Assembly (NCBI GenBank): GCA_002085445.1
Contig: NBMI01000153.1
Location: 1 to 38,566, forward strand
DNA length: 38,566 nucleotides
From: Candidatus Parabeggiatoa sp. nov. 2
GTDB lineage: Bacteria > Pseudomonadota > Gammaproteobacteria > Beggiatoales > Beggiatoaceae
Direction: 5' to 3'
The notes under the pieces are model-generated. The model saw only the letters and a list, made by a program, of their open reading frames with translations. It was not told the origin of the DNA and did not search any database. The position numbers and the translations under genes were made by a program. Every line of letters starts with the position of its first letter. Position 1 is the stretch's first letter. Positions 4,593-29,923 of the stretch are shown here, in pieces.

Positions 4593-4812
4593 GATCAGTG
4601 ATCAGAAGTCCAAACTTTAGTTTGGCCGGAGTCCAAACTTTAGTTTGGCAGTATTAAGTACAACGAATTACGCGGATAAACGAATTGAGATTGGGAGAGT
4701 TTGGCAGTCAGTATTAAGTACAACGAAACGCAGTGGCGGAACGCCTATTACGCGGATAAACGAATTGAGATTGGGAGAGTTTGGCAGGAGTCCAAACTTT
4801 AGTTTGACAGCG
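4593..4812. repeat. Composite repeat block: REP-like palindromes (GGAGTCCAAACTTTAGTTTGG) flanking two copies of the dispersed 'GTACAACGAATTACGCGGATAAACGAAT' element
   Basis: Hairpin tccaaactttagtttgga at 4631..4648 and 4790..4807; family-B units at 4651..4707 and 4711..4787. Confidence 0.85.
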
Positions 4813-9405: not shown

Positions 9406-9905
9406 GTATTAAGTACAACGAATTCCGCGGATAAACGAATTGATATTGGGAATTACAATCTGTTTGCGGAGCAAACCTGAATGGGTTCCTACGCAGAGCG
9501 TCAATAATTAATGATTAATGATTAATGATTAATGATTAATGAATTAAAGAATAGTTAACTTGTTGTTTTTAAAATAATAAAACTGAAGCGGAATAAAAAT
9601 TGGATCAAGTTTTAGAACCAAAGGAACCTCCTTTTCATCACCCCAGGAGGAGCGTGAAAATACCCATAGATTTTTTTTAACGTTTTTCATTTTGTGTGGG
9701 TATTTTATTTAGCCACAACTCCCTTAGTAGTGTTTGTAGTGTTTGTAGTGTTTGTAGTAGGCTTGTAATTGCCTTAACGAGATTAAGTTGCTAAAGCAAC
9801 TACTGCAAACAAGCAAGATTAAGTTGCTAAAGCAACTACTACAATCGTCATTCGTTTATCCGCGTAATTCGTTGTACTATTCATCATTCGTCTATCCGCG
9901 CTTCT
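9404..9905. repeat. Composite intergenic repeat block: family B units (9404..9455, 9845..9905), the tgcggagcaaacctgaatgggttcctacgcag repeat (also at 7445..7493), (TAATGAT)n, (TAGTGTTTG)x3 and two copies of gattaagttgctaaagcaactact
   Basis: Direct string matches to other loci in the window. Confidence 0.8.
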
Positions 9906-9969
9906 GTCATTGTACTACTTTAATCTTCATTTTTCATTTTTCATTACTATACCGATGAGGAGGACTCCG

Positions 9970-11592
9970 ATGCAAAACCTATTCAAGTCCTTGATTTTAT
10001 TGTTAACGCTAGCGATTTTGGTGAACGGTTGTAGTACGGAAAGTCCGCTTGTCAAAAGCGTCGCCTCACCTGGGCATGTTCCATCTTCGGGAGATGCAGA
10101 TGGATTTCTCATTGTGGACTGTCTCTTGCCTAGCCAAGTGCGTCAGTTGGAACCGGGTACCATTTCTCTTACGCAGCGCCGCCCCATTAAAACTTCTATC
10201 TCGGACTGTGAAATTCGTGGCGGCGAATATGTAGTTCAGGATCGTAGTGATTATGCCGCTGCCTTAAAAGTGTGGCTTGCCAAAGCCAAAGCTGGTGATC
10301 CCAAAGCCCAAACCTATGTCGGTGAAATTTATGAAAAGGGTTTGGGTGTTCCACCCGATTACGAAAAGGCTGCCCAATGGTATCAAAAAGCGGCCGCACA
10401 GGGATATGCCAGCGCCCAAATGGATTTAGGCTTTTTGTATGAAAGAGGCCTTGGAGTCAAACAGGATTCTGCGATGGCCGAAAAATGGTATCGTCAAGCT
10501 GCGGAATTAACCGAAGAGGCCGATATCGAGCTTGTTGCACCTACCCAGAGTAGCAACGAATGCGAAGAAGTCGCGCGTTTACGCCAAGAGCTAGAAGAAA
10601 CCAAACCGCTTGTTGCACCCGTCCAGAGTAGCAACGAATGCGAAGAAGTCGCGCGTTTACGCCAAGCGCTAGAACAAACCAAACAAAAAGTGGCCGAATT
10701 GCAAAATAAACTCCAAATGCATGAACGTGGCGCAAAACGGCGGCACTCCAAGAACAAGCGGCGAGAGACTGGCTCAAACAAGTTACCGTTGGGAACTTAC
10801 CACGCCTTGATCATTGGCAATAACCAGTACCAACATTTGTCGAAATTAAAAACGGCCGTCAATGATGCCAAGGTAGTCGATGAGTTGCTCAGAACACGTT
10901 ATGGCTATAAAACGACGGTGTTGCTGAATGCGAATCGCTATCAAATCCTTAATGCACTCAACCAATTACGCCAGCGCCTGACTGAAAAGGATAATCTGCT
11001 GATTTATTACGGTGGGCACGGTGAATTGGATGAAGTCAATCAGCGTGGGCACTGGTTGGCAGTGGATGCCGAACCGGACAGTACCGCAAATTGGATTTCC
11101 AATATAACCATCACAGACATACTTAACACGATGAGTAGCAAGCATATTTTAGTCGTATCGGACTCTTGCTATTCAGGGACAATGACGCGCTCGTCGCTGA
11201 CGCGCTTAGAAGCGGGGATGACACCAGAAAAACACCTTAAATGGATAAAGAAGATGTTAAAGAAACAGTCGCGCACCGCATTAACGTCTGGTGGTATCAA
11301 GCCGGTGTTAGACACCGGTGGTGGACAACATTCCATTTTTGCCAAAGCGTTTATAGACACTTTGGAAAATAATACTGAAATCATGGCCGCTTACAAGGTA
11401 TATCGACAAGTGGCGGCGTTGGTGAATGATGCGGCGGCGGCAACTCGTTTTGATCAGGTGCCAGAATATGCGCCAATCCGGTATGCTAAGCATGAAGCCG
11501 GAGAATTTTTCTTTGTGCCGAAGGGGGCATCCACCAAAATAGCTGTTTTGGGCACTGATGCTGGAGTCCAAACCTTTAGGTTTGGGCTTTAA
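9970..11592 (+). CDS. Lipoprotein with Sel1/TPR-like repeats, a duplicated 26-aa linker repeat and a C-terminal caspase-like (peptidase C14) domain
   Basis: Preferred start ATG 9970 after RBS gaggagg; the longer ORF from 9910 lacks an RBS. Signal peptide plus lipobox LLLTLAILVNGC. Three Sel1-like repeats. Caspase core ALIIGNNQY...NDA...LLIYYGGHGE (catalytic His-Gly) ...KHILVVSDSCYSG (catalytic Cys). A 78-bp in-frame duplication at 10530..10690. Confidence 0.85.
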   Translation: MQNLFKSLILLLTLAILVNGCSTESPLVKSVASPGHVPSSGDADGFLIVDCLLPSQVRQLEPGTISLTQRRPIKTSISDCEIRGGEYVVQDRSDYAAALKVWLAKAKAGDPKAQTYVGEIYEKGLGVPPDYEKAAQWYQKAAAQGYASAQMDLGFLYERGLGVKQDSAMAEKWYRQAAELTEEADIELVAPTQSSNECEEVARLRQELEETKPLVAPVQSSNECEEVARLRQALEQTKQKVAELQNKLQMHERGAKRRHSKNKRRETGSNKLPLGTYHALIIGNNQYQHLSKLKTAVNDAKVVDELLRTRYGYKTTVLLNANRYQILNALNQLRQRLTEKDNLLIYYGGHGELDEVNQRGHWLAVDAEPDSTANWISNITITDILNTMSSKHILVVSDSCYSGTMTRSSLTRLEAGMTPEKHLKWIKKMLKKQSRTALTSGGIKPVLDTGGGQHSIFAKAFIDTLENNTEIMAAYKVYRQVAALVNDAAAATRFDQVPEYAPIRYAKHEAGEFFFVPKGASTKIAVLGTDAGVQTFRFGL

Positions 11593-11799: not shown

Positions 11800-12400
11800 A
11801 CTAATCATTCATGCCAACTTGGATTTTGTGCCTGTTCTCAGTTATCAGTGTTCACTGATCATTTTTTTTCAGTGTTCACTGATCAGTTTTCAGTTTTCAG
11901 TGATCTGTTCTCAGTGAAAAGTGTAAACTGATAACTGAAACATAACTCTGATAACTGATCAAGAAGTGTTACTCTGTGTACCTGAAGTGATCTCTGTGTA
12001 TTTGATAACTGATAAGAATCGACGAAAAAATCCAAAACACACCCCCAACCCCTCTATCGATGTGAGTCAAGCCGAAGTAAGTCCCTTTACGTCGGGGATT
12101 TAGGGGTGTGTTAAATCGTCGCTGATCCTAATTGATAACTGATCACTTATAACTGAAAAACTGAAAACTGATCACTGATTGTTGATCTCTGAAAACTGAT
12201 CTAGGACTTACGCATTGACAAACTTAAATTTTTGTATTCACGATTAATATCAATGAGTTATGAATATTCTACCCGTGGCTAAATTGATGAAAATTGCCCA
12301 AAAACCCTTGTATTTAAAAGGAATCATAAATATTTTAATCTGTCAATGCGTAAGTCCTATTCTCAGTGATAACTGATCAGTGATAACTGATCTGTGAATA
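11800..12400. repeat. Low-complexity and inverted-repeat region (GATAACTGA/CAGTGATCAG motifs; a 10-bp-stem hairpin at 12040..12120; 17-bp inverted repeats ggacttacgcattgaca at 12207 and 12336)
   Basis: Read directly; the gacttacgcattgaca motif recurs at 14213, 14608 and 14720. Confidence 0.7.
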
Positions 12401-14075: not shown

Positions 14076-14077
14076 GA

Positions 14078-14123
14078 ATTGGTAATTGATAATTGGTAAT
14101 TGGTCATTGGTAATTGGTCATTG
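14078..14123. repeat. (TAATTGG)n-type heptamer array
   Basis: ggtaattgataattggtaattggtcattggtaattggtcattg. Confidence 0.85.
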
Positions 14124-15126: not shown

Positions 15127-15202
<76 letters not shown>

Positions 15203-15234
15203 AATTGAACTAAACTAATAGTTAATTGTTTTAT

Positions 15235-15310
<76 letters not shown>

Positions 15311-15329
15311 ATATTTTATTTTCCGATAC

Positions 15330-15404
15330 TGGCTGAGTGGCAGAGTGGTCATGCAGCGGTTTGCAAAACCGTGTACGTCGGTTCAATTCCGGCCTCAGCC
15401 TCCA
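15330..15404 (+). tRNA. tRNA-Cys(GCA)
   Basis: Acceptor ggctgag/ctcagcc; anticodon stem gcggt/accgt with loop ttGCAaa; T-arm gtcgg-ttcaatt-ccggc; CCA encoded. Confidence 0.88.
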
Positions 15405-15417
15405 ATTTAATCCTTAT

Positions 15418-15826
15418 GCCCGGGTGGCGAAATTTGGTAGACGCAAGGGACTTAAACTAATTTGAGCACCTAAGGCGAAATCTTTAGGTGAATGGAGTCT
15501 AATTCGGTGAAACCTGTCAAATGGCAACGCCGAGCTAAGCTCAATTCAGTAACAGGCTAGGGGTTCCCCTTTCCCTTTCCCTTTCCCCTTTCCCCTTTCC
15601 CATGGCCTTTTGCTGAGTTGAGAAAGTGTAGAGACCATACGGCTCCTGCCTTAGTAAATGCCTCTCTCCCCTGAAGGAAATTTTATAGGCAAAGACAGGG
15701 TCCAGACCACAAACACATCTATTAATTGATAAATGTCAATTGATAACGTGGCAGTGAAAGCTGTAGTTGGTAAGAAAATCCCTTGGTGGAGACACCGTAC
15801 CGGTTCGAGTCCGGTCCCGGGTACCA
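15418..15826 (+). tRNA. tRNA-Leu(UAA) split by a group I intron; exons 15418..15453 and 15775..15826
   Basis: 5' exon gcccgggtggcgaaatttggtagacgcaagggactt ends at U34. 3' exon aaaatcccttggtggagacaccgtaccggttcgagtccggtcccgggtacca restores the loop cttAAaa, a long variable arm, the T-arm and CCA. Confidence 0.85.
15454..15774 (+). ncRNA. Group I (IC3-like) self-splicing intron in the tRNA-Leu(UAA) anticodon loop
   Basis: Inserted between U34 and A35 and ends with G. Intron 5' end aaactaatttgagcacctaaggcgaaatctttaggtgaatgg, the P4/P5-like segment ggtgaaacctgtcaaatggcaacgccgagctaagctc and the P7-like segment gtagagaccatacgg closely parallel the cyanobacterial/plastid tRNA-Leu intron. Contains a (CCCTTT)n microsatellite at 15563..15601. 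Confidence 0.8.
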
Positions 15827-17554: not shown

Positions 17555-17779
17555 CCCCCCTTTTTAAAAGCTTACTTTTACCCACAAGTCTTGATAATTA
17601 ATAATTAATTATTAACAATTAATTATTAATTATTAGACATTATACCGATTTAATGTAACTCATTGATTTATTTAGAATCACTCGTTAAGTGATTGCAATA
17701 AAATCAATCACATATGTTAAATCGGTATAAACTCTATTAGCGATAACAGTCACCCTCGTGGGCATTCATTAACCCCTCG

Positions 17780-18064: not shown

Positions 18065-19801
18065 CTATTTTTTAGTTTTGTTTTTCGGTGGCGTTTGTTT
18101 GGATGCCAATTTCAATGGTATCCCCAAGTGTTCTGCAACCGCCTGCAATTTTGCCTTGTCGATAAGCCGTCTGAGCAAATCAAACTCGTTAGTCAAGTTG
18201 CGAACTTCTTGCTTTTGACGCAAGAATTCTATTTCCTGTTCTTGCTGGGCCATTTTCACCCGATGGTTGGCTTCTTCTATTTCCAGTTGCGCCTTGTTTT
18301 CTTGTTGTTGGCGCGATAGGCGGGCTTCTAACGCTTTAGCCTCAACCAAGTCGTCTTGCTCTTGAGTCAGTAATTTGAGCGCGGCGGCTTGTTTTTTGAG
18401 TGTTGTTTCCCGTTCCAGTTGCAACTGTTCTGCCTGCATTTTTGCCTCGTTCATGCGGCTTTCTTCGGCTATGGCATGTAACGTTTGTTCCGTTTGCAAG
18501 GTTTTTTGCTTGTTGTTGGTTTCATTGTCCAGTTTGGCTTGTTCTAGTTCCTTTGCCTGTTCCTGTTGCAATGTCGCTAACTGATTTTCGTATGCCAGAC
18601 GCGCCTGTTGGGCTTGGAGTCGTTGTTCCGATGTCTGCCTAGCGAGGGCAGTTTGTTCTTCCAGTTGAATCTTATGCTGGGCTGTTTCTTGTTCTTGTGC
18701 TTGAATTCGCAACTGTGAGGCTTGCTTGGCGAGGGTGGTTTGTTCTTCCAGTTGGAGTTTCGTGCGGAATGTTTCCTGTTCTTTGTTAAAACGGACGGCT
18801 TCTTCGGCTAATTTTAACTGGAAGGCTTCGGTTTGTTTGCTTTGCTTAACCTGCTCAATGGCCGCGTTGGTTTCCGCTTCACGGGTTTCTTTTAGGTGGC
18901 GACTTTGGAGTTCCTTGTTGTGAATTTCATTTAGCATGGTTAAGCGACTAATGCGGGCCGCTTGTTCTTGTTGATGACGAAAAGGGGCCTGTAAGTCTTG
19001 CCAAAGCTTTTGCGAGCTGACGTATGCTTCTCTAATCTGGACGGTGACAATTTTAATGCCCAAGCCTTCGTGGGTGACACTGTCTTCGTGATTACGACTT
19101 TCTGTCACGGCCTCAATGCGTTTGGTGAGTTCTTCGATAATGGGGGCTTTGTCGGTTAAAACCTCTTCCACACTCATGGTGGCAATTTTATCTTTGATAG
19201 CGGCTTCGGCTTGTTCACCCAGTTGGGCGTTGACTATGCCAAGGGGATCGCGGCTGTCTGAGAAATCCAATTTGCGGTAAGCAATTGAAAAGTCTGATAT
19301 TTGCCATTGTAAGTAGGCCAGCATATTGATGCCTTGTTTTTCTTGAGTAATGCACCTTGCTACGATACCAATGGTTTGCATGGCAGCAGGTACCACTAAG
19401 TAGGCATCGGTGTTGGGGTTGTAGCGAAAAGATTTTCCTAAGCCAATCGTCACCGGGGCACCGCGCCCTAAGCGCGTATGAACGACATACGCATTGGGAG
19501 GAATAAGAATCCGTTTCCAGCGCCAAAAGCCGGTTTCACGGATTTTTATCGGTTCTTTTTCCAGTTGTAGTTCTTCGGAGGTAACGAGGTTGCCTTGTGG
19601 TGGTTGGTTTGATGAAGTGGACGTTGGGGAGAGGTTTGCGTTAGAAACGGAAGAGTTGTTAGCTTCTTCTTCTGCTCCAATTCCTTCGTCACCAAATTCA
19701 AAAGAGAGTTCTTCGTCAGCACTTTTTTCCATCGCTTCCATCTTTACACGGGTATTGGCTTGACGATTAAATGCTTCGGCGGCTGAGATACGTTTTAACA
19801 T
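18065..19801 (-). CDS. Flotillin-like SPFH/Band-7 domain protein with a long Q/E/A-rich coiled-coil C-terminus
   Basis: SPFH core FWRWKRILIPPNAYVVHTRLGRGAPVTIGLGKSFRYNPNTDAYLVVPAAMQTIGIVARC; flotillin-type EA/Q-rich heptads; RBS aggaagg upstream on the minus strand. Confidence 0.8.
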   Translation of the reverse strand: MLKRISAAEAFNRQANTRVKMEAMEKSADEELSFEFGDEGIGAEEEANNSSVSNANLSPTSTSSNQPPQGNLVTSEELQLEKEPIKIRETGFWRWKRILIPPNAYVVHTRLGRGAPVTIGLGKSFRYNPNTDAYLVVPAAMQTIGIVARCITQEKQGINMLAYLQWQISDFSIAYRKLDFSDSRDPLGIVNAQLGEQAEAAIKDKIATMSVEEVLTDKAPIIEELTKRIEAVTESRNHEDSVTHEGLGIKIVTVQIREAYVSSQKLWQDLQAPFRHQQEQAARISRLTMLNEIHNKELQSRHLKETREAETNAAIEQVKQSKQTEAFQLKLAEEAVRFNKEQETFRTKLQLEEQTTLAKQASQLRIQAQEQETAQHKIQLEEQTALARQTSEQRLQAQQARLAYENQLATLQQEQAKELEQAKLDNETNNKQKTLQTEQTLHAIAEESRMNEAKMQAEQLQLERETTLKKQAAALKLLTQEQDDLVEAKALEARLSRQQQENKAQLEIEEANHRVKMAQQEQEIEFLRQKQEVRNLTNEFDLLRRLIDKAKLQAVAEHLGIPLKLASKQTPPKNKTKK

Positions 19802-19839
19802 AGCCAGATTTCCTTCCTAGTTGTATAAGGACTACATAA

Positions 19840-20460
19840 ATTGTTTATAATAAAAGATTACGCTTTTCAAAACGAATCGGCCTGTCGTTTTTATAAAAAT
19901 AACTACAAGGATTCGTTATAATAAGGGATTATCCTTGTTTATACAAAATCCGGTAATTATTTAAAGGATTACCCAATCCTTTCTTATCACGAATCGGCCT
20001 GTAGTTACAATAATAAACTACCCAATCCGCATCGATTAACGAATCGGCCTGTAGTTATAATAATAAATTCCCCAATCCGCATCGATTAACGAATCGGCCT
20101 GTCGTTTTTATAAAAATAACGACAGGGATTCGTTGCTTCTGAAGGTATTTTTCAATCAAGAATTCTCCATCCTTTCTTATAACGAATCCTTGTAGTTATA
20201 ATAAGAAATTCTCCCATCCGCATCGATTAACAAATCGGCCTGTAGTTACAATATAGATATTCAGATAATTAATTTAGTCTCCTTTAGGAGACTTGAGCTT
20301 TCAGACAATGTTGGCTGCGAAATACCCAATCCGCATCGATTAACGAATCTGCCTATAGTTACAATAAGAAATTACCCAATCCTTTCTTATAATGAATCGG
20401 CCTGTCGTTTTTAACAACAGCAATAACTACAAGGATTATTCATAATATCCTCCCAAGAGG
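19840..20460. repeat. About 620 bp of divergent intergenic space (flotillin <- -> hynS) built from iterated short units (acgaatcggcctgtagtt x6-7, ccaatccgcatcgattaac x4, ccaatcctttcttat x3) and the aactacaaggatt/aatccttgtagtt inverted-repeat element
   Basis: Direct counts of iterated strings; the same element family recurs at 25670..26040, 29940..29980 and 35145. Confidence 0.8.
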
Positions 20461-20496
20461 AAACCTGTCCTATTCTCAAACACACGGAGAAAAGAG

Positions 20497-21591
20497 ATGT
20501 CAAAACCTCAAAGCATCGCCGAAAGATTAAGCAACCAAGGCTTCAATCGGCGCGACTTTCTCAAATTCTGTGGCATTACCGCCACTGTCATGGGTTTACC
20601 ACCCGCCGTGATACCTCAAATTGCCAATGCTTTGGAAAAAACACCAAGACAATCAGTCATTTGGCTATCATTTCAAGAATGTACCGGCTGCACGGCATCC
20701 CTCACTCGCGCCCATGCCCCCACCCTAGAACGTCTGATTTTTGACCACATTTCCCTAGATATTCACCACACCTTGCAAGCCGCCTCAGGCGAAGCCGCCG
20801 AACAGATCCGCAAACAAGCCATGAAAGACAATCAAGGCAATTATTTACTCATTGTCGAAGGCTCAATTCCCATTGGCAACCCCGGCTATTCAACTATCGC
20901 TGGGATGAGCAACAAAGACATGCTGATGGAAGTTGCCAAGGACGCCAAAGCGATTATTGCTGTCGGCACTTGTGCCGCTTACGGTGGTATCCCACACGCC
21001 TACCCCAATCCTACGGGGGCAGTCTCTGTTGAAGAACTTATCACCAATAAGCCTATCGTCAATATTCCCGGCTGTCCACCAATTCCGGTTGCCATTGCCG
21101 GTGTCATCGCGCATACTGTCACCTTTGGCACATTGCCAGAACTGGATTCCTTAAAGCGTCCAGTCACGTTTTTTGGACAAAACATCCATGATCGTTGTTA
21201 CCGCCGCCCCTTTTATGACAAGGGATTATTCGCTGAAAGTTTTGATGATGAAGGGGCCAAGAAAGGGTGGTGTTTGTACAAATTAGGTTGTAAAGGCCCT
21301 GTGACTTCTAATACTTGTGCCACCGAAAAATGGAATGCCGGTGTCAGTTTCCCCATTGAATCTGGGCATGGTTGCTTAGGTTGCTCGGAACCCAACTTTT
21401 GGGATGCTGGCAGTTTTTATAAAGCACTCTCAGTGCCAACCGGCGATTTCGCCCAAACGGCCGGCTATGCCTTAGCGGCCGGCGCGGCGGTAGGTGTAGC
21501 GACTGGACTGCTAAACAAGAAGAAAAAAGGCGACGCCGCCAAAAACCATGAAACCGTGACAATTAACGATTTAGATAGAAAACAACAATAA
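20497..21591 (+). CDS. hynS: [NiFe] hydrogenase small subunit, Tat-exported, with C-terminal membrane anchor
   Basis: Twin-arginine signal NRRDFLKFCGITATVMGL; FeS-cluster Cys motifs (CTGC, GCPP, CxxC...); C-terminal hydrophobic anchor YALAAGAAVGVATGLL. Confidence 0.93.
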   Translation: MSKPQSIAERLSNQGFNRRDFLKFCGITATVMGLPPAVIPQIANALEKTPRQSVIWLSFQECTGCTASLTRAHAPTLERLIFDHISLDIHHTLQAASGEAAEQIRKQAMKDNQGNYLLIVEGSIPIGNPGYSTIAGMSNKDMLMEVAKDAKAIIAVGTCAAYGGIPHAYPNPTGAVSVEELITNKPIVNIPGCPPIPVAIAGVIAHTVTFGTLPELDSLKRPVTFFGQNIHDRCYRRPFYDKGLFAESFDDEGAKKGWCLYKLGCKGPVTSNTCATEKWNAGVSFPIESGHGCLGCSEPNFWDAGSFYKALSVPTGDFAQTAGYALAAGAAVGVATGLLNKKKKGDAAKNHETVTINDLDRKQQ

Positions 21592-21774
21592 ATTGTCCAA
21601 ACCTAAAGGTTTGGACTCCAAGCTTTGGACAACACAATCAATCAATTGTCCATTGGAGTCCAAAGCTTCAGCTTTGGACAACACAATAAATTGTCCAAAC
21701 CTAAAGGTTTGGACTCCAGCCAAGACATTGGAGTCCAAAGCTTCAGCTTTGGACAACTTAGAGAGGAATTCATG
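21592..21774. repeat. REP-like palindrome cluster (tandemly duplicated ~97-bp unit carrying ccaaacctttaggtttgg and ccaaagcttcagctttgg hairpins) between hynS and isp1
   Basis: Strings read directly; the duplication unit begins inside the hynS stop region (acaacaataaattgtccaaacc...). Confidence 0.85.
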
Positions 21775-22434
21775 ATGACTTCTATAGACTTTTTATCATG
21801 GGTGCGAGGGCCAGTTTTTATTATGGCGACAGCCATTTTCGTTTTTGGTATCAGCTTGCGTTTGCTCGAAATAGTGTCGTTACGCCGCAAACCCGATTAT
21901 TCAGCACCACGCGGCAGTCGTATGGTTGGCGGTATGCGTACCCTATTCAGCCGCTCTATGTATGATAAAAGCACCTTTCAACGTTCCGCATTTACCATTG
22001 TGGCCGGCTATATTTTTCATCTGGGCTTGTTTATCGTTACGTTCTTGTCTGTGCCACACATCCTTTTATTTCGAGAACTGTTTGGTTTCGACTGGTTTGG
22101 ATTACCGACAATCCTCATTGATGCGGTAACGGTAATAACCTTATTGGCTATGTTAGTCTTGTTAATTCATCGACTGAAAAACCCTGTCCGGCGATTTTTG
22201 TCCACCTTTGAAAATTATGTCGTTTGGACTGTAACCTTTTTACCCTTGCTGACGGGCTATATGGCCTATCATCATAGCGTGTTCCCCTATCCGCTGATGC
22301 TGGGTTTGCATATTCTCAGTGTGGAAATACTGATGGTTGTGTTTCCTTTTACTCAATTAATGCATACCTTCACTTTATTCATGGCGCGTTGGCATACCGG
22401 GGCTAACGCCGGTCACAGAGGAATTCAAGTATGA
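21775..22434 (+). CDS. isp1: Isp1, integral membrane cytochrome b-like subunit (NarI/DsrM-like) of an Isp-type hydrogenase
   Basis: Five predicted TM helices with conserved His. Start ATG 21775 after RBS gagagg is preferred over the track start at 21625, which runs through the REP cluster. Stop overlaps the isp2 start (ATGA). Confidence 0.85.
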   Translation: MTSIDFLSWVRGPVFIMATAIFVFGISLRLLEIVSLRRKPDYSAPRGSRMVGGMRTLFSRSMYDKSTFQRSAFTIVAGYIFHLGLFIVTFLSVPHILLFRELFGFDWFGLPTILIDAVTVITLLAMLVLLIHRLKNPVRRFLSTFENYVVWTVTFLPLLTGYMAYHHSVFPYPLMLGLHILSVEILMVVFPFTQLMHTFTLFMARWHTGANAGHRGIQV

Positions 22435-23738
22435 GTGCGGCTACTTTTGAGCGCGGCTATAAAGCCTTTAAAGAACAAATAGATGCGCCAATCGCGGCCT
22501 ATTTTAGCAGTTGTGTTAGTTGCGGTATGTGTGCCGAAGCCTGTTTGTTTTTCACCGAAACTGGTGATCCGAAATACACGCCCATCTATAAACTTGAACC
22601 CTTACGAAAAGTCTGGGAACAAGAATATACCTTATGGGGCCGACTGAAAGCGTTGTTAGGAATAAGTAAAAAGCTGACTGATGACGAGTTGGCCGAATGG
22701 CAAGAATTGATTTATGGCAGTTGCACTATGTGTGGGCGTTGCACAATGGTTTGTCCGGTGGGCAATGACTTGGTGTATATGATTCGCAAAGCGCGTGAAG
22801 GAATGGCCGCTGCCGGGCATGCACCGCCTGATATCATCGTGGGTACTCAACGCGCCATAACCATCGGCAGTGCGACGGGGGTAGGCTTGCCCACTTTGCA
22901 AGCGCAAATCAGACGCATCGAACGCGAAACGGGTATGAAGATTCCAATGGATGTGCAAGGCGTTGAATATATGGCGCTGCTCTCCTCAATGGAAATTATG
23001 AGCTTTCCAGAATATCTGGAAGCCCTCGCCAAGATTATGAAATACGCAGGCAAAACGTGGACGTTATCGTCTGAAGGCTTTGAAGCCACCAATGCCGGTG
23101 TCCAAATTGGTGTTTCTGAGATTGCTAAAGAATTGGTCATGCGTATTGTCAAGGCGGCGGAAAAACTCCAAGTGAAAACCGTTATCAGTCCTGAATGTGG
23201 CCACGCTTATGGCGCGATACGCTGGGAAGGGCCTAATTTAATAGGTCGCCCCTTTACTTTTCGAGTCCAACATATTCTGGAAGTGCTAGATGAATGGCGC
23301 GAGCAAGGCAAACTGAAAACGGAAGGTTTTGAAAAGGCGCGTCTGACTTTCCACGATCCTTGCCAATCAGTACGGCGTGGCGGTGTCATTGAGCAACCGC
23401 GTAACCTCTTGAAAATGGTGGCGAGTCACTTTGTAGAAATGGAAGATCATGGCAAAATGAATTGGTGTTGTACTGGTGGCGGTGGTGTCGGTGCGATAGA
23501 AGAAGCCCATGAACTTCGTACCAAAGCCTTTAATCGCAAGAAAACGCAGCTTGATGCACTTAAAGTGGACAAGCTAGTGACATCCTGTGCGAATTGTCGT
23601 CTTGTTTTGGAAGATGGGCTTGAAGCTTACGAAATGGAAATGCCCGTTATGGGTTTAACGGAAATGATTGCCGAACATTTAAAGGAGGAAGGTGAAATGG
23701 AAAAGGATAAAGGACTCTATAGATTTTCAGAAAATTAA
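22431..23738 (+). CDS. isp2: Isp2, HdrD-like iron-sulfur protein (two 4Fe-4S ferredoxin motifs plus CCG domain)
   Basis: CVSCGMCAEAC and CTMCGRCTMVCP ferredoxin motifs; CCG-type cysteines (DPCQSV...NWCCTGGGG...CANC). Confidence 0.9.
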   Translation: MSAATFERGYKAFKEQIDAPIAAYFSSCVSCGMCAEACLFFTETGDPKYTPIYKLEPLRKVWEQEYTLWGRLKALLGISKKLTDDELAEWQELIYGSCTMCGRCTMVCPVGNDLVYMIRKAREGMAAAGHAPPDIIVGTQRAITIGSATGVGLPTLQAQIRRIERETGMKIPMDVQGVEYMALLSSMEIMSFPEYLEALAKIMKYAGKTWTLSSEGFEATNAGVQIGVSEIAKELVMRIVKAAEKLQVKTVISPECGHAYGAIRWEGPNLIGRPFTFRVQHILEVLDEWREQGKLKTEGFEKARLTFHDPCQSVRRGGVIEQPRNLLKMVASHFVEMEDHGKMNWCCTGGGGVGAIEEAHELRTKAFNRKKTQLDALKVDKLVTSCANCRLVLEDGLEAYEMEMPVMGLTEMIAEHLKEEGEMEKDKGLYRFSEN

Positions 23739-23749
23739 TTTCTTTGGCA

Positions 23750-23860
23750 GCCAACAGCACAGGAGTCCAAACTTTAGTTTGGCAGTCGTCCAAACTTTAG
23801 GCATCGTTTAGCTAAAGCCTACTAATAGTGCCCTTTAGGGTACTTTAGCTTTAAGCCTTA
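23750..23860. repeat. REP-like palindromes (ggagtccaaactttagtttggcagtcgtccaaactttagg) and an agtgccctttagggtact hairpin unit between isp2 and hynL
   Basis: String matches to the REP family and to the hairpin family seen at 14385. Confidence 0.8.
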
Positions 23861-23944
23861 GAATTTATTCTAAAGCTTAACTTAATGGCATTGGGGTGTG
23901 TTTGGGTTTTCATCGTTCCTTACCAAAGTCGGAGAAACGAACTA

Positions 23945-25639
23945 ATGAGTCACCGTGTTGTTATAGATCCGATTACCCGCATTGAAGGCCATTTACGCAT
24001 CGAAGCGCAAATGGATAAGGCGGGAAAAACCATTCAATCAGCTTATTCATCAGGCACAATGGTGCGCGGTATTGAAATGATTTTACGAGGACGTGATCCG
24101 CGTGATGCGTGGGCTTTTGCTCAACGGATTTGTGGCGTGTGTACGCTAGTGCATGGTATCGCCTCAGTGCGAGCGGTAGAAGATGCACTCAGCTACACGC
24201 CACCGCCCAATGCCCAACTGATACGCAATTTAATGATAGCAGCCCAATATGTGCATGATCATGTGATGCACTTTTATCTTTTACATGCCTTAGATTGGGT
24301 GGATGTGGTTTCGGCTTTAAACGCTAATCCCAAGGAGACTTCTGAACTCGCCCAATCTCTTAGTCACTATCCCAAATCGTCGCCCGGCTATTTTGCCGAT
24401 ATGCAGCGAAAGTTGAAGCATTTTGCTCAAGAAGGACAACTGGGCATTTTTGCTCAAGGGTATTGGGGACATCCGGCCTACAAATTACCTCCTGAAGCTA
24501 ATTTAATAGCCGTCTCACACTATTTAGAAGCGTTAGCATGGCAACGCGAGGTTGCTAAATTACATACTATTTTGGGGGGTAAAAATCCTCATCCTAATTT
24601 CTTAGTTGGCGGTGTACCCTGTGCCATTGATTTGAATTCCGATTCGGCCCTCAATGCCAAAAGACTCGCGCAAGTGCAAGACATTATTACCTTAATGCGC
24701 GATTTTGTGGATCAAGTCTATGTGCCAGATACTCTTGCCATTGCTGGCTTTTATAAAGACTGGGCGAGACAAGGCGAAGGCCTAGGTAACTTTATGACTT
24801 ATGGCGATTTTCCTGAAATGGGTAGGGATGATCCGTCGAGCTTTTTGGTTCCTTCGGGTGTGATTTTAAATCGTGATTTGAACAACATTTATGATTTAGA
24901 CCTGAACGCCGCTGACCAAATTCAAGAATACGTTTCTCGCTCTTGGTACAACTACAGCAGCGGCAAAGATAAAGGCCTCCACCCCTACGACGGCGAAACG
25001 GAACTTTCTTACACCGGCCCAACACCGCCCTATAAACAGTTAGACACTGACAAAGAATACTCCTGGGTAAAATCGCCCCGTTGGAAAGGCCCCGATGGCA
25101 GCATTCATGCGGTAGAAGTTGGCCCGTTGGCGCGCGTGTTGATGTTGTATGCCAACGGCCATGAACAAACTCAGGATATGGTAGATTACACATTGAAAAC
25201 ACTGGAGCTGCCGATAGACGCGTTGTTTTCCACTTTAGGCCGCACCGCGGCCCGTACCTTGGAGACAAAACTCATCGCTGATGCCATGCCAATGTGGTAT
25301 GACAATCTGATTGCTAATATAAAGGCCGGTGACACCAAGACGTTTAACGAAGAACGGTGGGAACCTTCTACTTGGCCGAAACAAGCGAAAGGAGTTGGTT
25401 ATATGGAAGCACCGCGTGGTGCGTTAGCGCATTGGATTGTGATAGAAGACGGTAAAATTGCCAACTATCAAGCGGTTGCGCCGAGTACCTGGCATGCCGG
25501 GCCGCGTGATGCGAATGGACAAGCTGGCGCTTATGAGGCCGCATTGAAAGGCCATGTTCTGCACGATCCCAAACAACCGCTGGAGGTTTTACGCACCATT
25601 CACAGTTTTGCGCCTTGTCTTGCTTGTGCGGTGCATTGA
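23945..25639 (+). CDS. hynL: [NiFe] hydrogenase large subunit; ends exactly at the conserved C-terminal His
   Basis: Start ATG 23945 behind RBS ggagaaacg. N-terminal ITRIEGH and RICGVCTLVH (L1 motif); C-terminal DPCLACAVH followed immediately by TGA. Confidence 0.93.
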   Translation: MSHRVVIDPITRIEGHLRIEAQMDKAGKTIQSAYSSGTMVRGIEMILRGRDPRDAWAFAQRICGVCTLVHGIASVRAVEDALSYTPPPNAQLIRNLMIAAQYVHDHVMHFYLLHALDWVDVVSALNANPKETSELAQSLSHYPKSSPGYFADMQRKLKHFAQEGQLGIFAQGYWGHPAYKLPPEANLIAVSHYLEALAWQREVAKLHTILGGKNPHPNFLVGGVPCAIDLNSDSALNAKRLAQVQDIITLMRDFVDQVYVPDTLAIAGFYKDWARQGEGLGNFMTYGDFPEMGRDDPSSFLVPSGVILNRDLNNIYDLDLNAADQIQEYVSRSWYNYSSGKDKGLHPYDGETELSYTGPTPPYKQLDTDKEYSWVKSPRWKGPDGSIHAVEVGPLARVLMLYANGHEQTQDMVDYTLKTLELPIDALFSTLGRTAARTLETKLIADAMPMWYDNLIANIKAGDTKTFNEERWEPSTWPKQAKGVGYMEAPRGALAHWIVIEDGKIANYQAVAPSTWHAGPRDANGQAGAYEAALKGHVLHDPKQPLEVLRTIHSFAPCLACAVH

Positions 25640-26040
25640 TACATCATTCGTTTATCCGCGTAATTAGTTGTACTCAAGCGCAATTAGTTGTAGTATATAT
25701 CAATAACTACAAGGATTCGTTATAAAAATGTATTTTTCATCCTTGCTTATATTCAATCCTTGTAGTTAGTTAATTCGTTTATCCGCGTAATTAGTTGTAC
25801 TCAAGCGTAATTAGTTGTACTCAAGCGCAATTAGTTGTACTCAAGATTAATCCGCCATACTCAATATCAATAACTACAAGGATTCGTTATAAAAAGGGAT
25901 TTTTCATCCTTGCTTATATGAAATCCTTGTAGTTAGTTAATTCGTTTATCCGCGTAATTAGTTGTACTCAAGCGTAATTAGTTGTACTCAAGCGTAATTA
26001 CTTGTACTCAATATTAATCCGTTGTACTCGATATCAATAA
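25640..26040. repeat. ~140-bp complex unit x3 (family B attcgtttatccgcgtaattagttgtactcaagcg... plus the aactacaaggatt ... aatccttgtagtt 13-bp-stem hairpin element)
   Basis: Three successive near-identical units read directly, starting 4 nt after the hynL stop. Confidence 0.85.
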
Positions 26041-26260
26041 CTAGAAGGATTAGTTGCTTATGAAGGATTTTGTCATCGGAACAAAAAATAACACACCCTT
26101 GCTTCCCCTCTATCGAGGTGAATTACCTGCTTTATTCATATAGCCGCATTTCGATTTTCCCGCTCACTTTACCCCGAAGGGGTCAAAAAATAATTAAAAA
26201 TTAGTAATTATTTTAATTCTTCGGGGTTGGGGGCCGTTGATTGGTATTTATGGTAAGGAC

Positions 26261-29200
26261 TTATGCCTCCATTTGGTACACAGGATAAGGCATTTTAATA
26301 CCGGCCTCTTTAAAGCGATCCCAAATGCCAAACAATACCTTGGATTTTACCTGTGCAGAATTTGCCGACTGGCTATCGATGTAATAGTCAACACGGAAAT
26401 TGACTTTGAAATCCGCAAACCCCAACAAATAGATCCCAAAAGCCTGATCATTAAGGACTTCCGGCATTTCTTCTAACACCGCCTTGATAAGGTTTTCAGC
26501 CAAATGCGGGTCACTGTCATAACTGATACCAATGTCCAAATCGGTATGCAGTACGGTGCCTTCGCCATCGCCATCGTCTTCGCCTTCATCAGTCGTGCGA
26601 CAGCCAGCCCAATTAGTAAAGAGGCCAGAAATAAGCTTTGAATTGGGGACGACGACTTTTTTACTGTCCTCCGTTTCAAGCGTCAGAGAACGAATCCCAA
26701 TTTGTATGACTGTTCCACTGTACACGATACCTCCGCCTTGGGGACTCTCAATCTCCACAAAATCGCCAACTTGTAAGGGACGTTCTACTAACAACAAAAT
26801 GCCACTCACAAAATTATCCGCGATATTTTGCATACCAAAACCGATACCAACACCGACGGCACCGGCAAACACCGCCAAGGCAGTGGGATCTATCCCAAAG
26901 GTTTTCAAGGCAATCAATAGCCCAACCAATATCACTAGATACTGAATAAATACCGACAAACTATGCCGCATTCCCGTATCACTGATCTGTATAAAGAGCC
27001 AACGATAACTGACTCGGCGAAACCAACCACCCAACCAAAACACAAGCCAAACAAGCAGGAGCGACAGTAGCACCCCAAGCACCGTGATTTTGTTACCGTT
27101 TTCAAAGGTCATAAAAGAAAAGAAAAGTACCTTTTCTATATCTTCCTTGATAGCCACATCGGAATACCCACCTGTCAGCCCCAAGACTGCTAGCACTAAA
27201 GGAATCAAGTCTTCAGCCCAGAGTGAAGCAGACTGACTGTCGTCTTTTGACACCCAGTTTTTCCACAGCCCCACTAAATCATTTATAATTCCCCGCGCAA
27301 TCAACCAAGCGAACAACACCAACAGAAACAGGCTGAAATAGTGTGCCACTGTCCAACCCAGAGGAATGTAGCCCGTCATCCCTAATATCGAAACCACCAG
27401 AATAATGCTCGGCAATAATAAGCTGATAAGGTTAATCGCCAATAGCCAATAGCCTTTGGTATGAGTTGTTCGCATTAAGGTGAGTATAAGCAGACGCACA
27501 CGCATGAAGATGGGTATGATCAAAACCAACAACACCATGAACAAAGTGTCAACCAGATCGCGGGCCGTTAAAGAAAGCCCAACTTGCCCTTCAGACTCAT
27601 GATGGACCAATGCGGTGATAACGATCAATAGGCCTAAGACAATAATAGTCCAACGCACTTGCCGAGAGAGCTTGCTCATGTCTTGGGATTTGAACTCAGA
27701 AGCCGATAATAACAACCCAGACAAGTCAATAAGCAGTTTGCCACCTAACCAAGTCAATAACAGAATCAGGGCGACAAGGGTGCTTAAGTGATTCGGTTGT
27801 GTCAGCCAGATGAGCAGTAAAAACACACCCGTGACAGTAATGGTTACAGTATTCTTCTGCCACAGACGTAATCCTACCAGCAAGAGAGAGGGAAATCCCT
27901 CCATGCCCCCGCCGCCGAGGGAGGGGAGTTTTGGTGTGTTAAAAACAGAGGGGGAGGAACCTTTCCCCAAGTGTTTGAGCAAACTACCGCGTTTCTCTAC
28001 AGAATCCGAGGTTTTGAATATTCGCTTAGCCCAAGCACTTAGCCCAATCACTAAACTTAACCAAACCAGCATAACAAGGCCGATGATAAGCCAGCGTTGC
28101 TTGCTGGCTTGTTGAAAGGCTTGCCAAAAACCGCGCCCAGTGTGTTGTGAATGCTGTATGACAATACTCGGTATCGTGCCGATTTCTTTGAGTAAACTCC
28201 ACCATTCCACGGCACTGTTGGGCAAATCTCGCTGTCTCAACAGGGCCCGGTGCATGTTTTCTCTATAGACCTTTTCAAGCCGCTTGAGCAACTCGTCTCC
28301 TTTCTTCAGCAAAGGCCGCACTTGGTCTAATTCTTGCCGCAAGACGTTCTTGAGTTGTGTCAAGAGTTTTTGAGCTTGGGTATTCTTGCTCAACGCTTGA
28401 CCGCTCAATATTCCGCCCTGCTCTTTAACCACCTCCTGTTGTTTTTCCAAGGCCGCCATTTTATTTTCCAGCAGGGTTTGCAATGCTTGGAGATCTAATA
28501 TGAAGGTGTTGAGCTCGGTGATAACGGCTTTGGTATTGTCAAGTTTACTTTGAGAGATGTCCGTCGTTTCTTGTCGCTCCTCGGCCATTTTTTCCCACTG
28601 ACGGAATTGATCTCGGATATGCCGAATATTTAATTGACGCACAGCCCTTTGAGCAAATTCATTGGCCCCTTGAATCTCGACTCCCAGCAGATAACGTTGA
28701 GCAGAGTTTTTCTCCAAAGCGGGTATCAAGTCCAATTTATGGCGTAATTCAGCGGCCAGATCCAGATAACGCTGTTGCTCCTGTTGGATCTGCTTTTCTA
28801 ACTCTTGCTTTTGGCGGAGATGATACACCGCTTGCAATTTATCGTACCACTGTGTCGCAAGCGCTAACCGTTTCTTGGCTTGTTCAATGCGCTGTGTAAC
28901 AACATCAAGCTGTTGTTGTTCCAATTCCAGTGCCTTTTTTTGCAGTTTAATGTCATTCTCAAACACGGCAATTCTTTTCTCGTGCAAAGGCAATTGTTCT
29001 GGTTCAACCGGTGGCGTTTTGCGGATATTTTCCAGTTTTTCCTCTTGTTCCTTGAGGTGCTTGGTTTGATTGTCCAAATTGGTTTTGGCACTTTGGCGTT
29101 CTAAATCCAGATTTTTGACATCAACCTCCACCTTTTGCTTATCCAAGGCCGCTTTTTCAAACCGTTCTTTTAACATATCAACCGTCGATTCTGCGGTTTC

Positions 29201-29923
29201 CAGAGCGGCGATTTTATTGGGCAGATCGCTCTGCGCGGCCTGCAAAGTTTCTTTATGGCGAACCAGTGCCGCTTGGTTATCGGTTATTGCCTGTTCCCGT
29301 TCTTTAAGCATATGCGTTTGATGCAGCGTTTGCAATTGACTATGCCACTCTATAGCGACAAGCGTTTGCTTGATGGCCTGTTCAGTCTGCGTCTTAAGCA
29401 GTTCGAGATATTGTTGTCCAAGTTCAACGGCCGGTTTGTACAAGGCTACGTCCTTCTCAACCGCAGTTCTTTCCTTATTTTGAGCCACGGTTAGTTCAGC
29501 ACGCGGAAATTGGCTGAGTTTTTGTAACGTCGTTTGTAATTCCGTGAGACGTGCGGAATGTTTATCCAGACTGTCTTGAACATTTTTGCGTTCCACACGC
29601 AGTTCTTCGACTTTCTGGTTAGCAGTCTGCCGTTCCTTGGCCGCTTTTTCCAACATTTGTTGGGTGATCTTTTCAGTTTTTGCCAAACTGTCGATTCTCT
29701 TCTGGAGCGTTTGCTCTTCAGCTTGCAACGCTTTGCGAGCCTTTTTTAGCGCAGCTTGTGCTTTTGTTATCTGCGCTTTCCGCTCTTTAATCCATTGCGG
29801 TGTCACAGTGCTGGCGGCATCGGTGGTTTCAGGATTAGCCACCGATTGTTCTGCATGTGCCGGTAAGCCAACTATGCTTACGTACACAAATAAACAATAC
29901 ACCATAAATTTGAATAAAGACAT
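26261..29923 (-). CDS. mscK: MscK/KefA-like mechanosensitive channel (MscS family) with a large periplasmic coiled-coil N-domain
   Basis: Signal peptide; ~500-aa coiled coil; ~11 TM helices; C-terminal MscS core GVGIGFGMQNIADNFVSGILLLVERPLQVGDFVEI...GTVIQIGIRSLTLETEDSKKVVVPNSKLISG. Confidence 0.85.
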   Translation of the reverse strand: MSLFKFMVYCLFVYVSIVGLPAHAEQSVANPETTDAASTVTPQWIKERKAQITKAQAALKKARKALQAEEQTLQKRIDSLAKTEKITQQMLEKAAKERQTANQKVEELRVERKNVQDSLDKHSARLTELQTTLQKLSQFPRAELTVAQNKERTAVEKDVALYKPAVELGQQYLELLKTQTEQAIKQTLVAIEWHSQLQTLHQTHMLKEREQAITDNQAALVRHKETLQAAQSDLPNKIAALETAESTVDMLKERFEKAALDKQKVEVDVKNLDLERQSAKTNLDNQTKHLKEQEEKLENIRKTPPVEPEQLPLHEKRIAVFENDIKLQKKALELEQQQLDVVTQRIEQAKKRLALATQWYDKLQAVYHLRQKQELEKQIQQEQQRYLDLAAELRHKLDLIPALEKNSAQRYLLGVEIQGANEFAQRAVRQLNIRHIRDQFRQWEKMAEERQETTDISQSKLDNTKAVITELNTFILDLQALQTLLENKMAALEKQQEVVKEQGGILSGQALSKNTQAQKLLTQLKNVLRQELDQVRPLLKKGDELLKRLEKVYRENMHRALLRQRDLPNSAVEWWSLLKEIGTIPSIVIQHSQHTGRGFWQAFQQASKQRWLIIGLVMLVWLSLVIGLSAWAKRIFKTSDSVEKRGSLLKHLGKGSSPSVFNTPKLPSLGGGGMEGFPSLLLVGLRLWQKNTVTITVTGVFLLLIWLTQPNHLSTLVALILLLTWLGGKLLIDLSGLLLSASEFKSQDMSKLSRQVRWTIIVLGLLIVITALVHHESEGQVGLSLTARDLVDTLFMVLLVLIIPIFMRVRLLILTLMRTTHTKGYWLLAINLISLLLPSIILVVSILGMTGYIPLGWTVAHYFSLFLLVLFAWLIARGIINDLVGLWKNWVSKDDSQSASLWAEDLIPLVLAVLGLTGGYSDVAIKEDIEKVLFFSFMTFENGNKITVLGVLLSLLLVWLVFWLGGWFRRVSYRWLFIQISDTGMRHSLSVFIQYLVILVGLLIALKTFGIDPTALAVFAGAVGVGIGFGMQNIADNFVSGILLLVERPLQVGDFVEIESPQGGGIVYSGTVIQIGIRSLTLETEDSKKVVVPNSKLISGLFTNWAGCRTTDEGEDDGDGEGTVLHTDLDIGISYDSDPHLAENLIKAVLEEMPEVLNDQAFGIYLLGFADFKVNFRVDYYIDSQSANSAQVKSKVLFGIWDRFKEAGIKMPYPVYQMEA

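Follow-up and report, generated by a model that had tools for sequence, protein, structure and literature searches.

The stretch of DNA analysed here (hereafter the window) comprises the 38,566 nucleotides (nt) of contig NBMI01000153.1, from Candidatus Parabeggiatoa sp. nov. 2 (assembly GCA_002085445.1), and contains on its forward strand a hydrogenase operon, hynS-isp1-isp2-hynL, whose last gene encodes a large subunit devoid of the usual C-terminal maturation extension. The small subunit gene, hynS (20497..21591), codes for a protein with the PF01058 and PF14720 domains, a twin-arginine translocation (Tat) signal (RRDFLKF), the Fe-S cluster Cys residues and a C-terminal hydrophobic anchor, and it aligns to HydA from Allochromatium vinosum (3MYR_A, E=2.5e-136) with conservation of the Cys motifs. 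It is followed by isp1 (21772..22434, 220 amino acids (aa)), encoding a membrane cytochrome-b-like subunit whose start, MMTSIDFLSW, is given as called in the loci L001 and L004; by isp2 (22431..23738), encoding an HdrD/DsrK-like Fe-S protein with a CCG domain (Pfam Fer4_8 and CCG); and by hynL (23945..25639, 564 aa plus stop), which corresponds to a [NiFe]-hydrogenase large subunit (Pfam PF00374, E=1.9e-232). The longest open reading frame (ORF) of hynL opens at an ATG at 23885, its 20 extra residues being matched by no homologue, and the start is placed at the Met at 23945 (MSHRVVIDPITRIEGH...), as in all homologues, with a GGAGA ribosome-binding site 9 nt upstream. The best match in the Protein Data Bank is 3MYR (960 bits and E=4e-288 for the large subunit, 458 bits for the small one), group 1d enzymes coming next at 620-724 bits, and the gene order is identical in the loci L001, L004, L006, L008 and L012. 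By sequence relationship, the operon is that of an Isp-type (group 1e) periplasmic uptake [NiFe]-hydrogenase of a marine, Thioploca-like member of the Beggiatoaceae.

The HynL protein ends in ...HSFAPCLACAVH, directly followed by TGA, with the CAT codon of His564 at 25634-25636 and the stop codon at 25637-25639. Since the mature A. vinosum HydL chain (3MYR_B) ends at the His that is equivalent in the alignment, the stop codon falls precisely where the protease would normally cut, as had been proposed in a previous inspection of this DNA (the sequence-only reading). That inspection had quoted the last motif as DPCLACAVH, and this was a mistake: the codon at 25610-25612 is GCG (Ala556) and the motif reads APCLACAVH, in which both Cys and the His are kept and the Asp has been replaced by Ala. 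The residue affected is the canopy Asp of the DPCxxCxxH motif, equivalent to D574 of Escherichia coli Hyd-1, D544 of Hyd-2 and D529 of HycE, and its overlooked substitution is arguably a more unusual feature than the missing extension. The N-terminal metal motif, RICGVCTLVH, is present, and the four Cys ligands, the pendant Arg521, the N-terminal Glu and the terminal His564 are all intact.

How exceptional is such an enzyme among its relatives? The homologue search covered a collection of 5.8 billion proteins, and the counts given here and below are among the matches listed. Four full-length proteins, of exactly 564 aa and 95-100% identical to HynL, all end at the His and all show APC, and the fragment P0118 has the same C-terminal end and the same APC. 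The other full-length homologues (77-85% identity), which include representatives from Thiothrix, Thiomargarita-like bacteria, other 'Thioploca sp.' and Albibeggiatoa, carry in 115 of 115 cases the Asp as well as an extension of 15 aa of the LSDASGEEMLKVKVC type, in which an Asp, a Gly and a Glu position each reach a conservation of 97% or more (one of these proteins, P0110, has Gly instead of the second Cys). A scan of species-representative genomes yielded at least 80 loci with 73-85% identity, with the Asp in all 79 that have a recognisable motif and an extension of exactly 15 aa in 75 of the 79 genomes; the truncated clade is absent among the matches listed there, all of the relatives in that set carrying the extension, and the closest named organism listed, Ca. 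Thiomargarita nelsonii (85% identity), has it as well. The premise of the sequence-only reading that group 1 large subunits usually bear an extension of ~15 aa is hence borne out, and the possibility it had raised against itself, namely that Isp-type orthologues might also end at the His, does not apply. In the literature, the naturally extension-less [NiFe]-hydrogenases are those of groups 2b, 2d, 4c, 4e and 4g, group 1 not being among them (Hartmann et al. 2020, PMC7294309). Only one tight clade lacks the extension, and every member of it also shows the Asp-to-Ala change, so that the enzyme is best described, on present sequences, as a recent variant of a well-known family that breaks two otherwise kept rules, the extension and the canopy Asp.

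This clade is formed by three lineages: the window together with the protein P0001; L004 and L010, with 98% aa identity to the window; and L001-L003, with 94.5%. Pairwise identity within the clade is 94.5% or higher, and that to anything outside it does not exceed 85%. A sequencing or assembly artefact is ruled out by the presence of the same end in independent assemblies (NCBI GCA_029935755.1, ENA ERZ27227324, Logan SRR21545380 and three JGI metagenomes), and an identical HynL end is found in four further distinct protein sequences. All three lineages have in common CAT TGA TAC(A/C)TCA, i.e., the His codon, the stop codon and a non-repeat stub, TAC(A/C)TC(A), which occupies 25640..25645 in the window. 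Because they share the stop and the stub and then differ in repeats and neighbours, the truncation is ancestral to the clade and had one origin.

Two ways in which a normal extension might still be produced were considered and discarded. One is a frameshift hiding it, as the sequence-only reading had itself contemplated: the three frames of the 90 nt after the His were inspected in the window, L001, L004 and L010, and no extension-like peptide was found in any of the six frames of the window or the clade loci, the same pattern search being positive in L006 and L008. The other is read-through of the TGA, as a selenocysteine codon or otherwise, which is ruled out by an in-frame continuation that is not conserved (YIIRLSA*, YLIRSHR* and YINNYKDSL*); furthermore, the RNA downstream of the stop differs among lineages, so there is no shared element resembling a selenocysteine insertion sequence. 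A further candidate, P0118 as a decayed allele, was also rejected. It derives from the contig L091 (JGI 3300005265, Ga0073580_122646), which is 100% identical to the window apart from gaps: it is without five segments of 28-107 nt, four of which break isp2 and hynL, and its mscS-like gene is also called in pieces. L091 is thus an assembly artefact of the window's own strain and not independent evidence, and it yields misleading partial database proteins such as P0118.

The origin of the truncation had been attributed in the sequence-only reading to a dispersed repeat (family B) that begins 4 nt after the stop and whose insertion would have deleted the extension. It is true that a repeat follows almost directly, the distance being 5-7 nt: its core, ATTCGTTTATCCGCGTAATTAGTTGTACT, begins at ~25644-25646, at the head of a modular array (25646..~26060) made of 20-bp units, GCGTAATTAGTTGTACTCAA, and a hairpin, TAACTACAAGGAT...ATCCTTGTAGTTA, that forms a 167-bp super-unit present 2.1 times. 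The 19-mer CGTAATTAGTTGTACTCAA has 21 occurrences (with up to 3 mismatches) in six places of the window, all intergenic, for 0.01 expected by chance. The family is also found soon after other gene ends (at 4654, after an ORF end at 4588, and at 9409, after one at 9363), and the 3' flank of hynL is a hot spot of rearrangement, with downstream neighbours that vary among the lineages examined; these observations speak in favour of an insertion of the adjacent repeat that deleted the extension. Such an event is nonetheless unlikely in view of what stands after the stub in each lineage. In the window, the next element is the 20-bp-unit module. L004 and L010 have at this point the hairpin module of that repeat family, the array of L004 opening with it and not with the module of the window. 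In L001 the stub gives way to an unrelated repeat (GGAGTCATCGATAAATCTTGGACG...), beyond which there are TIR-domain genes instead of the MscS-like gene that lies downstream in the window and in L004. The lineage L001-L003 therefore has the same stop and the same ~9 nt, followed by another repeat family, with no copy of that of the window in its 1.3-kb flank. Moreover, the array is 710 nt long in L004 and 803 nt in L010 despite hynL alleles that are 99.8% identical, and its copy number differs among the window, L004 and L010. The different repeat in L001 and the variation in length among near-identical alleles imply that the present arrays are younger than the truncation, and the deletion of the extension by the adjacent repeat is not borne out. 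An older insertion, later replaced, is conceivable but cannot be shown, and a small deletion fits equally weakly: if a loss of 5 nt had joined CAT to the TGA that spans the Ser-Asp codons out of frame (AG-TGA-T in L008), 5 of the 10 following bases would match, so that it is not demonstrable either.

What has happened to hynL after the truncation is clearer. Between the window and L001, the non-synonymous and synonymous divergences of hynL (dN and dS) are 0.028 and 0.196, respectively, i.e., a dN/dS of 0.14 (63 synonymous and 31 non-synonymous codon differences), with a bootstrap 95% interval of 0.085-0.22 and a maximum of 0.25 over 300 replicates. Within the clade, dN/dS amounts to 0.14-0.16 for hynL, 0.15-0.17 for hynS and 0.11-0.16 for isp2, and no internal stop or frameshift occurs in hynL in any independent allele. 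Such low post-truncation values indicate that the HynL protein is in use: hynL has been under purifying selection since the truncation and is neither a pseudogene nor an artefact. Tajima relative-rate tests against extension-bearing sister lineages gave mostly p>0.05 and no consistent acceleration, with the exceptions of P0004, nominally faster with one outgroup, and of P0016, with respect to which the clade is slower. The conserved sequence around the gene in the clade is limited to the last 54 nt before the start and ~9 nt after the stop, the rest of the spacer sequence turning over, and the codon of Ala556 itself varies synonymously (GCG or GCT). Since dS is ~0.2 within the clade and at least 0.84 to the nearest relatives, the loss of the extension is, on this scale, recent.

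A recent loss might be taken for a recent inactivation, in which the absence of the extension blocks cofactor insertion, with the Asp-to-Ala change as an early symptom of decay and an ORF that has simply not had the time to break down. The engineered removal of the extension does lead to Ni-free E. coli Hyd-2 and Ralstonia eutropha soluble hydrogenase (SH) (PMC7294309), repeats are accumulating in the operon spacers (the one between isp2 and hynL reaches 1.7 kb in L001), and neither an endopeptidase gene nor hyp genes were found within the window in Pfam and ORF checks. This scenario has to be reconciled, however, with a truncation that predates the split of the three lineages and a hynL whose dN/dS has an upper bound of only 0.22, with hynS and isp2 being equally constrained and all independent alleles free of stops and frameshifts. 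The GCG/GCT variation is expected for a maintained residue, and the sole 'broken' copy, that of L091 and P0118, is the assembly artefact described above. We thus regard inactivation as very unlikely. The sequence-only reading had left the enzyme as either 'pre-processed' or impaired in its maturation; the first of these options is favoured, whereas the dN/dS, the lack of acceleration and the intact metal ligands disfavour an impaired or decaying one.

If the extension is dispensable here, what has become of the protease that normally removes it? Of the 58 related loci that reach far enough upstream, 54 have a gene of the HyaD/HybD endopeptidase family at the head of the operon (e.g., 5578-6108 in L012), and in 52 of these it lies 3.7-5.7 kb upstream of hynL. 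The order in Thiothrix caldifontis is hynD, a 141-aa ORF, hynS, isp1, isp2, a 146-aa ORF and hynL; the two small Thiothrix ORFs (in L012, 6105-6530, 141 aa, and 9550-9990, 146 aa) are missing from Beggiatoaceae operons. The region upstream of hynS in the window (18065-20496) contains a minus-strand ORF without Pfam match (18065-19801) and a repeat-filled spacer. The operon-head endopeptidase gene is also missing in the extension-bearing Beggiatoaceae loci L006, L008 and L014, as in every Beggiatoaceae locus retrieved with or without the extension, so its absence from the window is not specific to the truncated clade, and, to judge from the gene orders compared, the protease gene must have been moved or lost in the Beggiatoaceae. 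No named Thioploca endopeptidase appeared among the 120 listed of 4689 matches to the HynD of T. caldifontis, these being Thiothrix-like or unnamed.

We consider it reasonably probable, on these grounds, that HynL belongs to a selectively maintained, 'pre-processed' and canopy-modified group 1e hydrogenase, which would mature without endoproteolysis. The common ancestor of a narrow clade lost the 15-codon maturation peptide of HynL, whose translation now yields directly what other hydrogenases obtain only by endoproteolysis, and Ala took the place of the canopy Asp of DPCxxCxxH in this same clade. The Hyp machinery would load Fe(CN)2CO and Ni into an already 'pre-cleaved' apoprotein, the C-terminal His would close the active site with no protease checkpoint, and the HynSL dimer would be exported by Tat via the signal peptide of HynS and deliver its electrons to Isp1 and Isp2. 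The repeats at the stop codon are later, fast-changing intergenic fillers that halt at the ORF boundary. There are precedents for the maturation step, since the pre-cleaved large subunit of the R. eutropha membrane-bound hydrogenase (MBH) receives the NiFe(CN)2CO cofactor, is exported and supports growth on H2 with wild-type specific activity, albeit with a lower membrane yield, and the Hyp machinery likewise serves the enzymes that naturally have no extension (PMC7294309). As for the canopy, the Asp hydrogen-bonds the pendant Arg above the Ni-Fe site (in E. coli Hyd-1, D574, with C576 and C579 as Cys ligands), and its loss probably affects turnover or catalytic bias, a decrease being the most likely outcome.

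Several points weigh against this interpretation. The pre-cleaved large subunits of E. coli Hyd-2 and R. eutropha SH stay Ni-free (PMC7294309), so tolerance of the truncation is not general. The canopy Asp has been called strictly conserved in [NiFe]-hydrogenases and complex I, where its non-protonatable substitutions are impairing in the case of complex I (PMC9474812), and an enzyme with Ala at that position could be a strongly attenuated catalyst. Of all lineages in the set, the clade also has the most changes at columns that are at least 99% conserved (8-10, where the median is 3 and the runner-up has 6). Lastly, purifying selection shows that the protein is used, not that it is used as a hydrogenase.

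These considerations lead to the possibility that HynL is maintained but inefficient as an H2 oxidiser, be it as a slow or low-flux enzyme, as one with altered bias or affinity, as a sensor-like module or as a structural partner, the latter meaning that HynL would be needed to export or assemble HynS, Isp1 and Isp2 for some other electron transfer, e.g., a sulfur-linked one. Seven invariant-column changes are common to all members of the clade (V7I, V161A, H332R, V512A, N517H, I548V and D556A), and three of these clade-specific changes fall in active-site segments: V512A and N517H lie just N-terminal to the canopy Pro520-Arg521, and D556A eliminates one of the two carboxylates by which the pendant Arg is held in place. 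In addition, the HxHxxHxxHxH motif is altered differently across sister lineages. Its 4th His, invariant in the 115 other homologues, is replaced at codon 112 by Leu in the window (CTT, 24278..24280) and by Gln in L004, L010 and P0001; L001 keeps this His and has lost the 5th one instead (codon 114, CAT to CAG, Gln). In HynL from Thiocapsa roseopersicina, however, the H110A variant keeps 71-95% of the activity and H112A 66-82% (PMC3325256); with effects that are this mild, the His changes of the clade do not conflict with an active enzyme. None of the four metal-binding Cys has been lost, nor have the Arg, the Glu or the terminal His, the protein has evolved without overall acceleration, and HynS, unlike in cytoplasmic sensors, preserves the Tat signal, all cluster ligands and the anchor. 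An inefficient or merely structural HynL is therefore conceivable, but we would not expect it.

A related question is whether the loss of the extension and that of the Asp go together beyond this clade. In a small survey of 50%-identity cluster representatives that best match HynL and have a readable C-terminus, 7 end at the His and 43 are extended, and the canopy residue is other than Asp in 3 of the 7 and in 1 of the 43, respectively (Fisher's exact p=0.007, or 0.036 without P0130); the members of this survey are few and non-independent, they are unannotated metagenomic predictions, and the test includes no phylogenetic correction. The extension-less representatives without the Asp are P0197, with Gly (GPC), P0240, with Asn (NLC), and P0130, with Ala, and NCBIfam models are too general to assign subgroups to the extension-less set. 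The association is thus weak, and may serve as a lead rather than as a result. It would suit an inefficient HynL to the extent that such a survey allows, as would the persistence of P0130 as a group-1-like homologue after a total loss of the metal site. P0130 (567 aa, 46% identity) has in fact lost all four Ni-Fe Cys (...HSFAPSSSDASH) and has no RxCGxC motif; another group-1-like representative, P0152 (566 aa), keeps DPC and has no extension. More tentatively, both losses might be functionally coupled in the 'pre-processed' enzyme that we favour, with a protease-independent closure of the site and with the Asp-to-Ala, Asn-to-His and Val-to-Ala changes compensating for the missing checkpoint or retuning catalysis, an idea that we consider doubtful. 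If it were true, the association would reflect a general rule, according to which the Asp of DPC is tied to an extension- and protease-dependent maturation.

The surroundings of the operon show the same abundance of repeats as its 3' end. The hynS-isp1 spacer (21595..21757) is filled with GTCCAAACC-TTTA-GGTTTGGAC hairpins and a 35-bp tandem unit, and measures 0-196 nt in the extension-bearing L006 and L008. The isp2-hynL spacer (23739..23944) contains short repeats, only its last ~54 nt, including the GGAGA ribosome-binding site, being conserved in the clade, and its length goes from 85 nt in L006 to 206 nt in the window, 780 nt in L004 (3545-4324) and 1746 nt in L001 (8255-10000). Short dispersed repeats that are filling both intra-operon spacers (21595-21757 and 23739-23890 in the window) include the GGAGTCCAAA...TTTGGAC hairpin family. 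Downstream of hynL, the boundary of the system is set by a convergent gene for an MscS-family mechanosensitive channel (26261..29923, minus strand), which lies outside it, and between both genes there is a GC-clamped inverted repeat, ACCCCGAAGGGG...CTTCGGGGT (26171..26227), kept in L004, that is a candidate bidirectional terminator. No histidine-kinase or response-regulator domains were found among the window ORFs scanned against Pfam.

Farther from the operon, a tRNA cluster (15127-15800) consists of two Gly(GCC) genes, one Cys(GCA) gene and a tRNA-Leu(UAA)-like gene with the 5' exon GCCCGGGTGGCGAAATTTGGTAGACGCAAGGGACTTAA. The latter was not called by ARAGORN and is split at the anticodon by a group I intron (Rfam RF00028, 15444-15724, 58.6 bits), which carries a CCCTTT/TTCCCCT microsatellite (15564-15601). 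Intron-split tRNA-Leu(UAA) genes are typical of cyanobacteria and plastids. The window also contains many intergenic direct repeats of heptamers (TAATGAT, ATTCACA, AATGATT, TAACTGA, AATTGGT and ATAATTA), at 1020-1090, 1352-1389, 9503-9547, 12129-12201, 14077-14123 and 17594-17635. Arrays of TAACTGA have been reported in marine Beggiatoaceae (MacGregor 2015, PMC4679880), and they thus fit the 'Thioploca sp.' label of P0001.

The closest known systems are the HynSL and HydSL enzymes of T. roseopersicina and A. vinosum (group 1e, 3MYR), with which the window enzyme shares the gene order, the domains and an end-to-end alignment of HynL, as well as the Tat-exported small subunit, the four Ni-Fe Cys, the pendant Arg and the C-terminal His. 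It differs from them in having no encoded extension, where the relatives have a conserved one of 15 aa; in the Ala that replaces the Asp of DPC, with the Asn-to-His and Val-to-Ala changes beside the Pro-Arg canopy loop; in the loss of one His of HxHxxHxxHxH; and in the absence of an operon-head endopeptidase gene. The nearest relatives of HynL, which are 85% identical and bear the extension, provide a ready comparison pair for mutagenesis in the established Hyn system of T. roseopersicina. The altered HynL also bears on the real use of H2 by Thioploca-like filaments, which is usually inferred from the presence of the genes alone.

With regard to the extension, its absence from the large subunit is a feature in common with the sensors (groups 2b and 2d), the CO-dehydrogenase-linked enzymes (4c), Ech (4e) and group 4g. 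Their large subunits extend no farther than the His or Arg of the last motif and are matured by the Hyp proteins, no protease taking part (PMC7294309). They are, nevertheless, separate and anciently diverged groups with other partners, whereas the window HynL is 85% identical to ordinary, extension-bearing members of group 1e. The likeness to sensor hydrogenases drawn in the sequence-only reading holds for the missing extension and is otherwise an analogy: group 2b sensors are cytoplasmic, have no Tat signal and work with a histidine kinase and a response regulator (HoxJ/HupT, HoxA/HupR), while the window HynS keeps its Tat signal and anchor in a hynS-isp1-isp2-hynL operon.

With regard to the canopy, Ala556 occupies the position of D574/D544, two residues before the first C-terminal Cys ligand, among the residues varied in E. 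coli Hyd-1/Hyd-2 (D574/D544, D118/D103 and R509/R479), although those variants are site-directed and retain the extension. No natural enzyme with Ala at the canopy Asp is described in the literature on this residue that was examined. Should the window enzyme be active, the Asp-to-Ala change would set a limit to how essential this Asp is, implicated as it is in proton handling together with the pendant Arg. To our knowledge, the earlier evidence on the need for the extension in group 1 comes throughout from engineered truncations, and a natural one in a standard periplasmic uptake enzyme, kept by selection, would amount to a natural test of the need for the tail. In those experiments, E. coli Hyd-2 and R. 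eutropha SH could not do without the extension and R. eutropha MBH could; the sensors and Ech have none (PMC7294309). The closest parallel is precisely the engineered MBH(proc) of R. eutropha (PMC7294309), likewise a group 1 membrane-associated uptake enzyme translated so as to end at the cleavage-site His. That enzyme is a laboratory construct of the O2-tolerant group 1d, with its canopy Asp intact and a lower membrane yield, whereas the truncation in the window is natural, fixed in its clade, placed in group 1e and combined with the Asp-to-Ala change.

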